Positions 45,892 through 47,046 of a stretch of 64,000 nt of DNA are shown one piece after another. Made by a program: the position numbers and the translations under genes. Where the stretch lies: the NCBI GenBank assembly GCA_965656185.1, contig CBFHJH010000001.1, positions 291,089 to 355,088 of the forward strand. The letters are read 5' to 3'. How positions within the stretch are numbered: the stretch's first letter is position 1; each line of letters opens with the position of its first letter. This DNA is from Croceimicrobium sp. (GTDB lineage Bacteria; Bacteroidota; Bacteroidia; Flavobacteriales; Schleiferiaceae). The notes under the pieces are model-generated. The model was not told where the DNA came from. It saw only the letters and a program-made list of their open reading frames with translations, and did not search any database.

Positions 45892-46477
45892 TTAAGATCT
45901 GGCAAAATCGAGTAGGGGTTGGTAATCTCCCTGATCAGCTTGTTTCACAGCTTTTAGGTAGGCCGATCTAGTGTCGTTTGCCTTTGAGAGGTTTGCTGCT
46001 CCCCATGAGAAAGGCTTCTGGCCGAAAAGCTTCTCGATAATAATATCTCCCATTAATCTACTGTGTCTCCCATTTCCGTTGGGAAAGCAGTGAATACTAA
46101 CAATTCGATGTTTGAATCGAATAGCGATTTCGTCAGGAGAGTAGGTTTGGTGTTCAAACCAATACAATGCATCATCACATAAAACTTTTAGAGACATGGG
46201 TATTTGAAATTTATCGATGCCAATATTTTTATTGGTTTTTCTGAAATCTCCTGCCCAAGCCCAAACATTACCATACATCCGTTTATGCATGTTGCAAATG
46301 AACTTTTCCGTGAAGACATCTTTGGCCTTGAATTTTTTACCAAAAACCCATTGCAATACCTCTTCGATGTTTTGCTGCTCGAATTCGTCCAATTCTCCTT
46401 TGGTTGTAATGGTTTCAATCAGTAATCCTTCCTTTTATAGGGGTTTGCCCGTCAATGTAATCAAGATCTAATCCCAT
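45892..46477 (-). pseudogene. mobile mystery protein B (Fic domain), frameshifted near 46435
   Basis: ATG 46477 gives MGLDLDYIDGQTPI then a stop at 46415-46417; KEGLLIETITTKGELDEFEQ continues in another frame closed by TAA 46435-46437; Fic motif HCFPNGNGRHSR intact. Confidence 0.8.
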
Positions 46478-46926
46478 AATATCTTTGGCAGTTCACTTTT
46501 AAGTATTGCAGCTCGTTCCTCGACGGCTTTTTGTAGACGTTGCTTCGTATTCTCCTGATCTTCTAGTTTCATCGTGTTCGATGTTCGAGAAACTATTTGG
46601 GTGGCTAGTTCTCGAGCCTTTCGGTCAATTAGGTTTTCGATGCTACCATCCTTAGGAACTAGAGCGTATACCAGCTGCATGTCCAATGCATTTGCGGCTT
46701 CTCTTAAGCTCTTTAGGGTTATTCTCCCTTCCTTTTCACGCTTTTCGATTTCTTGGACACTCTGTTTGGTTATGGATAGTTTATTCGCGAGCTGCTGTAG
46801 AGACATGCCAAGGGAAACCCTTATGGCTTTTAGCCAACCAGTGGGGGGTGGAACTACTTGCTGTGCTGTTTTAAATTCACTTAACTTTCGCTCTAGCTGT
46901 TCGATTTGAAGTTTCTTTTTATTCAT
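46468..46926 (-). CDS. mobile mystery protein A (XRE-family HTH); start likely ATG 46926
   Basis: PPTGWLKAIRVSLGMSLQQLANKLSITKQSVQEIEKREKEGRITL, TMKLEDQ, PKILWD; directly upstream of the Fic gene. Confidence 0.88.
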   Translation of the reverse strand: MNKKKLQIEQLERKLSEFKTAQQVVPPPTGWLKAIRVSLGMSLQQLANKLSITKQSVQEIEKREKEGRITLKSLREAANALDMQLVYALVPKDGSIENLIDRKARELATQIVSRTSNTMKLEDQENTKQRLQKAVEERAAILKSELPKILWD

Positions 46927-46929
46927 GAT

Positions 46930-47046
46930 GTAAGGGTCTGTGCTGACAAAACGCAAACAAAAGTAAGGTTATTACCTGACATAAACAAAATTTAAGTAAG
47001 GATATAAGTTGACAAAATGTTTCAATATATCAGGTTATAGACTGAC
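46930..47046. promoter_or_regulatory. four 18-bp quasi-palindromic operators at exact 33-bp period, overlapping promoter TTTG(46986-46989)-N20-TACTTTTG(46958-46965) on the minus strand
   Basis: gtaagg-gtctgt-gctgac (46930), gtaagg-ttatta-cctgac (46963), gtaagg-atataa-gttgac (46996), atcagg-ttatag-actgac (47029). Confidence 0.8.

Follow-up and report, generated by a model that had tools for sequence, protein, structure and literature searches.

A mobile mystery A/B cassette downstream of mnmE: a probable toxin-antitoxin-like Xre-Fic operon with a frameshifted fic gene

The 64,000-nucleotide stretch of DNA analyzed here (the window) carries on its minus strand, downstream of mnmE, a cassette of approximately 1.5 kb in which a repressor gene (A) overlaps a Fic gene (B). 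The two genes belong to the mobile mystery A/B family. The cassette probably represents a type II toxin-antitoxin-like, autoregulated Xre-Fic operon that travels without an integrase and is defunct in this genome. Judged by its sequence, B is a pseudogene here, and A is left as an orphan repressor or antitoxin.

Gene A (positions 46468–46926, minus strand) is intact, starts with ATG and encodes the 152 amino acid mobile mystery protein A, an XRE-HTH protein. It scores 147.8 bits against TIGR02612, for which the curated NCBIfam cut-off is 122.6, also matches Pfam HTH_3 and is 98% identical to P0121. B, when read through its frameshift, reaches 250.8 bits with TIGR02613, above the cut-off of 124.4, and also matches Pfam Fic. 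The original prediction assigned the pair to TIGR02612/TIGR02613, and both proteins are indeed above the curated cut-offs. The gene order that it described, a small XRE-HTH gene followed by an overlapping Fic gene, is likewise found: the ATG of B overlaps the stop codon of A by 10 nt (ATGGGATTAG). The 10-nt overlap is present in 67 of 68 loci that have a full-length B open reading frame, and in Proteobacterial plasmid copies the overlap is 1–4 nt.

The AF2 model of A has a pLDDT of 92.3. The protein displays an XRE-type HTH at approximately residues 31–80 and, toward the C-terminus, a helical hairpin whose loop (residues 117–126) bears the sequence T118-M-K-L-E122-D-Q124. The structures closest to the HTH are the HipB, HigA2 and HigA3 antitoxins, with a weak likeness.

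Four 18-bp palindromic boxes of the type GTMAGG-N6-CCTKAC are found upstream of A with an exact 33-bp period. The pattern GTMAGGNNNNNNCCTKAC, with at most two mismatches, matches at positions 46930, 46963, 46996 and 47029, and there are only four further matches in the 64 kb, which is the chance rate, none of them clustered. The boxes are predicted operators, all on the minus strand. Box 4 (46930–46947) is the proximal one, at −21 to −4 from the ATG and within the predicted 5′ UTR. Box 3 (46963–46980, −54 to −37) is a perfect GTMAGG-N6-CCTKAC, box 2 (46996–47013) is at −87 to −70, and box 1 (47029–47046, −120 to −103) is the distal and least conserved box. Boxes recur at −21/−54/−87/−120 in 80 other species-level loci, with the consensus GTCAGGyTATAACCTTAC; at least three boxes are present in 54 of the 80, and in one locus the palindrome is perfect (GTAAGGTTATAACCTTAC).

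The predicted promoter is situated among these boxes. Its −7 element (46958–46965, minus strand; TACTTTTG) fits the Bacteroidetes TAnnTTTG consensus and is overlapped by the 3′ end of box 3. A TTTG of the −33 type (46986–46989, minus strand), which has box 2 upstream of it, is predicted to pair with this TAcTTTTG. The promoter elements thus sit between the boxes and overlap them; the transcription start is itself predicted, at approximately 25 nt upstream of the ATG. In the other loci, TAnnTTTG is found at −39/−40 in 51 of the 80, and in 47 there is a TTTG 18 or 24 nt upstream. A multi-operator array with a promoter buried in it had been proposed, and the comparison among loci upholds both the array, with its fixed offsets, and the position of the promoter. 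The proposal of a single consensus promoter holds for a Bacteroidetes-type −33/−7 pair but not for sigma-70, for which a scan gave no site upstream of A. Since the promoter is embedded in the operators, autoregulation is predicted.

Gene B is interrupted. In an alignment to homologues of 198 aa, which are up to 97% identical, the window sequence lacks 11 nt, GATGAAGATGA, which amounts to the residues DEDE and a shift of frame. The deletion site is at 46436–46437 (minus strand) and the frame of B is lost after codon 14. What is left at the 5′ end is an N-terminal fragment (46415–46477, minus strand) that begins with the ATG at 46475–46477 and runs for 20 codons to a TGA at 46415–46417, a stop codon made by the frameshift. 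The remaining open frame (45892–46434, minus strand) consists of 180 codons plus a stop and contains the entire Fic core with the motif HCFPNGNGRHSR. Its first in-frame start is a TTG at 46392, 22 nt past the premature stop, with an open reading frame of 166 aa. The AF2 model of B, made from a shallow alignment, is poor (pLDDT 65), and its Foldseek matches are Fic proteins only (TM ~0.5).

The deletion allele is present in the assembly of run X1 at a depth of 13.8. The intact allele is found in run X3, where a sequence that is approximately 98% identical and extends into mnmE has CATCTTCATCA inserted behind position 46436. Loose ends of X2 and the metatranscriptome runs X26 and X39 also have 11 nt inserted at the deletion site, with an identical or nearly identical sequence. 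A metatranscriptome contig of the intact allele in a relative spans the A-B junction; such contigs can contain DNA. Programmed frameshifting in B was considered and rejected, because close relatives simply possess the 11 nt.

The Fic motif of B reads H-x-F-x-N-G-N-G-R-x-x-R and thus departs from the canonical class I motif HxFx(D/E)GNGRxxR in having Asn at the Asp/Glu position; the His, the GNGR and the final Arg are kept. The Asn variant is present in every B checked from Bacteroidota and Proteobacteria. Due to this Asn, AMPylation by B is not assured. B also has no conserved inhibitory motif of its own: [ST]xxxE[GN] occurs sporadically, in 6 of 120 B sequences and in none of seven diverse members. 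In addition, the N-terminus of B is shorter than that of the class II protein CdFic and is too short for a helix such as the one that bears S31/E35 in CdFic.

A candidate inhibitory motif is found in A instead. The C-terminal region of A has a near-invariant sequence, (T/S)-M-x-L-E-(D/N/G)-Q, which is like the Fic inhibitory motif (S/T)xxxE(G/N). In an alignment of 113 representatives, with counts taken over 114 sequences, M119 and L121 are each kept in 104, E122 in 103 and Q124 in 101, and position 118 is S or T in 78 (68%). The residue after E122 is D in 51, N in 23 and G in 9 of the 114; A of the window has D, where the canonical motif has G or N. The strict (S/T)xxxE(G/N) is found at the conserved site in 18 of the 114 sequences and anywhere in the protein in 24. 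The motif is kept in Proteobacteria as well. AF2 places it in a loop and not in a helix, and the confidence of this loop is below that of the rest of the model. The C-terminal domain of A gave only chance-level matches in a PDB profile search and a Pfam scan, with none to VbhA/FicA-type antitoxins, and the likeness of A to Fic antitoxins is confined to a motif of 5–7 residues. Both the canonical (S/T)xxxE(G/N) and a deviant motif in a working antitoxin, STAIET of AntY, have been described (PMC7479194). The conserved motif of A, together with the absence of an intramolecular motif in B, gives indirect support to the view that A neutralizes B.

The conserved mobile unit spans positions 45655–47122 (minus strand) and comprises the leader, the operators, A, B and a 3′ non-coding segment, with weak similarity continuing to approximately 45625. 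From 47122 to 45655 the window is 87% identical to eight other loci (L001–L008) that have other genomic contexts. In the relative L018 homology breaks at 47124 and 45671, and a hipBA pair fills the same slot between mnmE and a glycosyltransferase gene. These two results confirm that the pair resides on a mobile islet, as had been suggested. The mnmE gene is again the immediate upstream neighbor of A in six distant species, and the slot downstream of mnmE is a cargo-swapping hotspot. More generally, the cassette occurs in unrelated contexts and replicons. It has no integrase or recombinase, and no att-like conserved sequence was seen between mnmE and the operators in the distant species.

Downstream of B there is a conserved non-coding element of approximately 240 nt (45625–45864, minus strand). 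It has two copies of TTGTTGCGC, 42 nt apart, that flank the hairpin GGCACCTGGTGCC. The element may be part of the cassette or may be the upstream region of the glycosyltransferase gene. An Rfam scan of the element and of the whole region gave no family match, and folding of both gave no stability signal. A small conserved open reading frame in the element was also considered and was rejected, as the open frames differ among copies and are without start codons.

The A family comprises approximately 1,600 clusters at 50% identity (HMMER, E ≤ 1e-10). Two A peptide patterns, built from 11 A sequences, gave 415 confirmed matches in a collection of one genome per species; the 80 loci fetched are mostly from Bacteroidota. 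The two genes occur together on approximately 260 plasmids (258 records for A, 262 for B) and are spread over the same taxa; the carriers include Agrobacterium Ti plasmids, rhizobial megaplasmids and Coxiella QpH1. On one plasmid the A-B pair directly follows a CopG-RelE and an AbrB-MazF pair. Carriage by phages was seen in none of 50,697 phage records and at one locus in 2.9 million viral contigs.

A full-length A accompanied by a broken or missing B is found in 12 of 79 assessable species loci (8 broken and 4 absent). As this census is anchored on A, it does not establish that decay is rarer in A than in B. Examples of decayed B with intact A are the Saprospiraceae loci L014 and L015 and Coxiella QpH1, where B is frameshifted. 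The B knock-outs are single nonsense or frameshift mutations and the remaining gene is conserved. This repeated decay of B beside an intact A lends indirect support to the idea that B may be costly. In three unrelated species a stop codon falls at the same Trp of B. Recoding at this position was rejected, as the estimate for such a coincidence is ~0.3 given five Trp codons, which is not significant; the three stops are treated as independent knock-outs.

The following mechanism is proposed for intact copies. Dimers of A would bind the four 18-bp palindromes, which are 33 bp apart and flank or overlap the −33/−7 promoter, and A would in this way repress its own operon, in a manner that resembles HipB on the four hipBA operators. 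The overlapping stop and start codons would couple translation of A and B, and A would keep B inactive. The most likely inhibitor is the (T/S)MxLE(D/N/G)Q loop of A, which would put its glutamate into the nucleotide-binding site of B and act like the (S/T)xxxE(G/N) element of class I Fic antitoxins. Loss or titration of A would set B free to modify an essential protein; NMP transfer is the probable chemistry, and arrest of growth would follow. Such arrest would stabilize the element that carries the pair and could possibly abort phage infection. A more detailed proposal is offered tentatively and with some doubt, namely a fused-function form of class I Fic control. Here a HipB-like repressor would supply E122 in trans to an Asn-variant Fic protein, the four phased operators would read the A:B ratio, and the recombinase-less cassette would spread among distant Bacteroidota by targeting of, or exchange at, the 3′ flank of mnmE, with the ~240-nt element perhaps involved. 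The original interpretation as an HTH-Fic toxin-antitoxin or defense module stands with respect to the family, the antitoxin-first overlapping genes, the operator-embedded promoter and the mobility. It fails for the window itself, where the module cannot work because B is frameshifted.

For this copy alone, it is possible, though rather doubtful, that the locus is a remnant that no longer functions, with decay having yet to reach the intact A. The frameshift in B agrees with this, as does the recent date of the deletion (populations that are ~98% identical keep the intact allele), which perhaps left A no time to decay. However, the recurrence of orphan full-length A in 12 of the 79 loci suggests retention, e.g. 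as an anti-addiction factor or a repressor, and a shortened B of 166 aa could be made from TTG 46392. The remnant explanation applies to this copy alone and does not conflict with a toxin-antitoxin-like explanation for the family. For the family as a whole, a dedicated role in anti-phage abortive infection appears unlikely. In this case a phage product would degrade or titrate A, which would thus serve as the sensor of infection and release B, and the cell would shut down. B does match the PADLOC candidate PDC-S04 and, weakly, SoFic, an established Fic defense protein with a small antitoxin (PMC12249575). At the locus L011 the A-B pair sits among defense genes (pAgo, a DNA methylase, SLFN_AlbA_2 and a ResIII endonuclease), and among 129 immediate neighbors there are four pAgo proteins, three type III methyltransferases and two type I methyltransferases. 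Yet most of these neighbors are not defense genes; the commonest are mobile-element replication genes, including 15 proteins of the DUF3987 mobile-element primase/helicase type, and housekeeping genes. PDC-S04 is a computational candidate, and the one published test of this system in a native host showed no defense. Also, there is no known phage trigger, and the large conjugative plasmids (Ti, rhizobial and Coxiella) suit maintenance at least equally well. An anti-phage role is in any case compatible with the toxin-antitoxin reading and may be a role of the same mechanism.

It is also conceivable, but quite improbable, that A and B form a non-toxic regulatory pair, B reversibly modifying A or another regulator and A controlling genes beyond its own operon. 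The Asn variant in the Fic motif of B fits such a role, and the persistence of A after loss of B points to a possible separate function of A. There are precedents among Fic proteins: Fic domains are often tied to DNA-binding domains, some being DNA-activated (de)AMPylases (PMC10628234), Fic-2 carries an HTH, and several class II/III Fic proteins are non-toxic on overexpression (PMC7479194). Other observations point away from it. The operator matches elsewhere in the 64 kb, at chance rate and unclustered, give no sign of a regulon. The pair moves among unrelated contexts and replicons, which better suits a selfish or defense module, and its slot is shared with hipBA. The recurrent single-mutation knock-outs of B look like selection against an active, costly protein.

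The A/B pair is very common and is still named a “mystery”. The toxin-antitoxin guess is here made specific, with the operator GTCAGGyTATAACCTTAC in four copies at a 33-bp period, E122 as the candidate neutralizing residue and a named variant of the catalytic motif. Natural intact and broken alleles are available that are only approximately 2% apart. The inhibitory loop, if true, would extend the scheme of Fic regulation to HTH-fused antitoxins. In annotating the window, B should be entered as a pseudogene, A as a repressor or antitoxin that has lost its partner, and the slot downstream of mnmE as a hotspot of cargo exchange.

The original prediction regarded the function of the pair as unassigned. 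This holds with respect to experiments, none of which was found for the mobile mystery A/B family in the searchable literature, but the toxin-antitoxin reading has been published as a prediction (Makarova 2009, PMC2701414; Zhang and Ye 2013, PMC3936711; Benler 2021, PMC8649781). In the first of these, Fic/Doc-xre pairs with 22 occurrences are among the predicted toxin-antitoxin systems. The toxin-antitoxin system reported from Coxiella QpH1 (PMC10098735) was considered as an example of the A-B pair and rejected, as it is HigB2/HigA2 (cbuA0028/27). In the same study, CRISPRi of every QpH1 open reading frame gave a growth defect for the HigA2 homologue only. Given the polarity of CRISPRi and the frameshift already present in the Coxiella B, this result is uninformative for A-B. 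The tiorf24/25 stability module of pTi-SAKURA was dropped as an example as well, since we take it to be the RES-Xre pair of that plasmid. A RES-Xre pair on pTi-SAKURA is given by Makarova 2009 (PMC2701414).

Compared with known defense proteins, B shares the Fic catalytic domain with SoFic and PDC-S04. Its match to PDC-S04 (PADLOC PDLC04839) is at about 1e-24 to 9.9e-24 over residues 22–191, and that to the SoFic model is partial (4.1e-7). SoFic also has a small neutralizing partner (PMC12249575); however, it belongs to class II, is larger and multidomain, and has its partner downstream, and PDC-S04 is a single-gene candidate that is experimentally unverified. Neither has an XRE partner or an operator array. 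As in Xre-RES and other Xre type II modules, the XRE-family protein is predicted to be both repressor and neutralizer, and higher-order binding of an Xre antitoxin to adjacent palindromes has been reported (PMC12204516). These modules have a toxin of another fold and chemistry, and the N-terminal helix and C-terminal hairpin of A are family-specific. With Phd/Doc the pair shares a Fic/Doc-fold toxin and an antitoxin-first, two-gene operon on mobile elements, autoregulated in Phd/Doc and predicted to be so for A-B. Doc, however, has HxFx(D/N)(A/G)NKR and is a kinase of EF-Tu, whereas B retains GNGR, and Phd is not an HTH protein and neutralizes through its C-terminal helix by fold complementation.

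The class I Fic modules (VbhT/VbhA, FicT/FicA, Fic-1/AntF and FicY/AntY) resemble A-B in several respects. The Fic protein has no inhibitory helix within its own chain, the small gene of its partner lies directly upstream and is overlapping or coupled, the partner bears a conserved (S/T)-h-x-h-E motif, and the modules are found on plasmids and islands. VbhA/FicA-type antitoxins are small proteins that are essentially the inhibitory helix alone, whereas A, at 152 aa, includes an XRE HTH and would combine repression and inhibition in a single chain. Its motif continues with D/N/G-Q, is strictly canonical in the minority of sequences counted above and is predicted in a loop; its C-terminus has no sequence homology to the known antitoxins, and B has N for D/E. 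The known targets of class I Fic proteins are GyrB/ParE. HipBA differs from A-B in its toxin, HipA having a Ser/Thr kinase fold where B is a Fic protein, in the absence of a long C-terminal helical hairpin from HipB, and in the sequence and spacing of the operators. On the other hand, hipBA has four operators, and in both systems the XRE-HTH antitoxin gene comes first and the promoter is within four spaced palindromic operators. The HTH of A has HipB among its closest structural neighbors, and it is a hipBA pair that occupies the slot between mnmE and the glycosyltransferase gene in the relative L018.

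The A/B locus is encoded on the minus strand and is flanked by a glycosyltransferase gene (44354–45532) and mnmE (47309–48706). A mechanical list of open reading frames places the start of gene A at TTG 46956. All A homologues are 152 aa in length with the N-terminus MNKKK, in agreement with a start of gene A (46926–46468) at the ATG at 46926. The TIGR02612 model gives gene A 147.8 bits, above its cut-off of 122.6, and Pfam HTH_3 is matched as well. The ATG of gene B (46477–46475) is within ATGGGATTAG, which includes the gene A stop codon. The frame of this ATG ends after 20 codons, and the remainder of gene B (46434–45892, minus strand) is open in a different frame. 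Read-through of the B sequence yields 250.8 bits with TIGR02613, whose cut-off is 124.4, together with matches to Pfam Fic, the PADLOC defence candidate PDC-S04 (1e-24) and the anti-phage Fic protein SoFic (4e-7).

In an alignment with homologues of 198 aa (identity up to 97%), the window B sequence is missing the four residues DEDE and changes frame; the lesion is an 11-nt deletion of GATGAAGATGA. A contig from sequencing run X1 is identical to the window (depth 13.8). A contig from run X3, about 98% identical (33 differing letters and 15 gap positions over ~1.6 kb), reaches into mnmE and has CATCTTCATCA inserted behind position 46436. The same 11-nt insertion is found in loose ends of run X2 and in one contig of the metatranscriptome run X39, and a contig of a second metatranscriptome, X26, displays a one-letter variant of it. 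Sister populations with the insertion thus carry an intact B allele at the same chromosomal site. This allele rules out programmed recoding of B as the source of the frame change, which is a mutation. The deletion is real and recent, and the window copy of the A/B pair is inactivated.

Disrupted B sequences are also present elsewhere. Among 80 loci sampled through A, which is full-length in all of them, 79 can be assessed for B (one is at a contig end): 67 have an intact B, eight a broken B and four no B. Six of the eight broken genes have a single in-frame stop codon and are otherwise conserved, and five of these six stops are at Trp codons. B is shortened to 53 aa in the Saprospiraceae loci L014 and L015. 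In Coxiella burnetii QpH1 (L009, 2900–3522), where A is intact, a frameshift at about codon 22 disrupts B, and the annotated product is a 160-aa protein truncated at the N-terminus. Loss of B with retention of A would be expected of a costly toxin; as the loci were sampled via A, the reverse case is uncountable. The same conserved Trp (VWAW*AG) is replaced by a stop in L092 (6450–7043), L096 (3109–3702) and L124 (1049–1642). These B sequences are unrelated (~65% nt identity) and otherwise conserved; TGA is the stop in one of them and TAG in the other two. The three are probably knock-outs of independent origin, and by our estimate the coincidence is not statistically remarkable.

The region upstream of gene A displays four putative operator boxes, GTMAGG-N6-CCTKAC (up to two mismatches), at 46930, 46963, 46996 and 47029, spaced exactly 33 bp apart. 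The rest of the 64 kb holds just four more matches, which are scattered and as many as expected by chance. In alignments with diverged loci, conservation within the A leader falls on the boxes, and one such locus has the perfect palindrome GTAAGGTTATAACCTTAC. The box positions of −21, −54, −87 and −120 relative to the ATG are conserved in 80 species-level loci (A identity 66–93%), where the consensus is GTCAGGyTATAACCTTAC and 54 of the 80 have at least three boxes. The multi-operator array of the original prediction is thus borne out. The single consensus promoter proposed with it is not of the sigma-70 type, as a scan upstream of gene A was negative. Elements of another kind are present: TAnnTTTG occurs at −39/−40 in 51 of 80 loci and TTTG lies 18 or 24 nt further upstream in 47, a pair that corresponds to the known Bacteroidetes −7/−33 promoter consensus. 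In the window the predicted −7 element is TACTTTTG (46965–46958, minus strand) and the −33-type TTTG is at 46989–46986 (minus strand). The −7 element is partly covered by the −54 box, and the predicted 5′ UTR contains the −21 box, so that A bound at the boxes would block initiation of transcription.

Contigs from a seawater metatranscriptome (X39; 85–95% identical relatives, window positions 46382–46980) cover both A and B, and one crosses the A–B junction of an intact allele. Another continues past the predicted transcription start on its upstream side; carry-over of DNA, or an additional start further upstream, may account for this.

The proposal that the pair is a mobile islet is upheld by the unit borders. 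Window positions 47122–45655 align at 87% identity to eight marine-metagenome loci, which carry an intact B and identical copies of one A homologue, 95% identical to the window A. Their contexts differ from that of the window, with transposase genes (ISL3 or IS3) and a ParE pair alongside. The relative L018 shares the mnmE-glycosyltransferase synteny, but its homology to the window stops at 47124 and restarts at 45671; the 1.6 kb in the slot (L018 2680–4265) holds a hipB-hipA pair, with products of 107 aa (an HTH protein) and 421 aa (HipA). The slot thus exchanges toxin-antitoxin (TA) type cargo. In six of the 80 loci mnmE is an immediate neighbour, in each case directly upstream of A and oriented as A is, as in the window, and these mnmE sequences are only 45–56% identical to that of the window. 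It appears that the cassette has repeatedly landed, or been exchanged, at the 3′ flank of mnmE. The six loci (L061, L066, L085, L095, L127 and L132) are from distant Bacteroidota species, and no conserved att-like sequence is seen at them. The unit has no recombinase gene; the simplest idea is exchange through conserved flanking genes.

A conserved non-coding element of ~240 nt is found downstream of B in the window (45625–45864), in L001–L008 (L001 7058–7313), L059 (3712–3925) and L060. It also occurs alone, with no A/B pair nearby, upstream of a glycosyltransferase gene in L016 (4200–4440) and L017. Two copies of TTGTTGCGC, 42 nt apart, flank a hairpin, GGCACCTGGTGCC. The element shows no Rfam match, folding signal or conserved open reading frame; candidate roles are those of a promoter region, recombination site or element end. 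The 9-mer TTGTTGCGC/GCGCAACAA is at 45535, 45701, 45743, 47184, 47195 and 47525, six copies in 64 kb against an estimated ~0.5 expected, five of them within 1.7 kb around the cassette. Two tandem copies are just beyond its left border, and one inverted copy immediately precedes the glycosyltransferase start codon.

Plasmids carrying B number 262 and those carrying A 258, and the taxa are distributed alike in the two sets (Agrobacterium ~100, Rhizobium 52, Coxiella 18–19, Vibrio 18). B is absent from 50,697 phage records and present in only one of 2.9 million viral contigs. Among 129 immediate neighbours are DUF3987 (15), BT4734-like_N (8) and PriCT_2 (6), which we read as mobile-element primase/helicase genes, nine further HTH_3 proteins, pAgo (4), and type III (3) and type I (2) methyltransferases. 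A Megaera plasmid has CopG-RelE and AbrB-MazF pairs immediately ahead of the A/B pair. In L011 it adjoins pAgo (Piwi), an N6/N4 DNA methylase, an SLFN_AlbA_2/HATPase protein and a ResIII restriction endonuclease; in this well-sampled species the pair is apparently within a defence island (L011 1–10459). Among A-type proteins, P0241, P0242, P0282 and P0288 have 5–13 A-like matched stretches each, which in P0288, on inspection, are tandem A-like HTH units. P0256 displays a C-terminal fusion that by eye resembles a nucleotidyltransferase domain of the MNT type, to which the antitoxins of HEPN-MNT systems belong.

The mobile mystery names originate in TIGRFAMs, without function. A TA prediction for the pair is already published in three papers: Fic/Doc-xre pairs are among predicted TA systems (Makarova et al. 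2009, PMC2701414), a TIGR02612 gene adjoining a Fic gene was termed antitoxin (Zhang and Ye 2013, PMC3936711), and TIGR02613 was placed under Fic/Doc toxins as Tn7 cargo (Benler et al. 2021, PMC8649781). No experiments on the family were found in the searchable literature; the QpH1 TA study deals with HigBA2, and its CRISPRi screen of all plasmid open reading frames is uninformative for A/B (PMC10098735). PDC-S04 was tested once and showed no defence phenotype. The pair itself is confirmed and more sharply defined. Its interpretation is supported in part: there is good evidence for the architecture, for mobility and for autoregulation as likely. The window copy is inactivated. Neutralization of B by A and toxicity of B have indirect support from sequence comparison. 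The window locus is a degraded member of the predicted Xre-Fic TA kind. The family matters chiefly for its size and because it has not been studied, and precise experiments can now be derived from the evidence.

Comparison with known Fic systems bears on both proteins. B displays H(P/C)FxNGNGRxxR in all phyla checked, with Asn where the canonical Fic motif has Asp/Glu, so the group transferred, AMP in the original prediction, is uncertain. The HTH of A is structurally nearest, though weakly, to the antitoxins HipB, HigA2 and HigA3. A confident AF2 model of A (pLDDT 92.3) places the HTH between an N-terminal helix and a hairpin of two long helices (96–116 and 127–145) that matches no known protein in a PDB profile search or Pfam. 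The connecting loop (117–126), of lowest model confidence (72–79), holds the most conserved part of A outside the HTH. Among 114 sequences (113 representatives and the window A), this motif has M119 in 104, L121 in 104, E122 in 103 and Q124 in 101, T/S at position 118 in 78, and D (51), N (23) or G (9) at position 123; Alpha- and Gammaproteobacteria retain it as well. Fic inhibitory elements have the canonical form (S/T)xxxE(G/N), and the proven antitoxin AntY has STAIET (PMC7479194), whose last position departs from this form as position 123 of A does. No conserved inhibitory motif is found in B, which starts too late to include a helix such as that bearing S31/E35 in the class II protein CdFic, its best PDB relative. 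These features together fit possible trans-inhibition of B by A of the class I type, although the motif is a short one.
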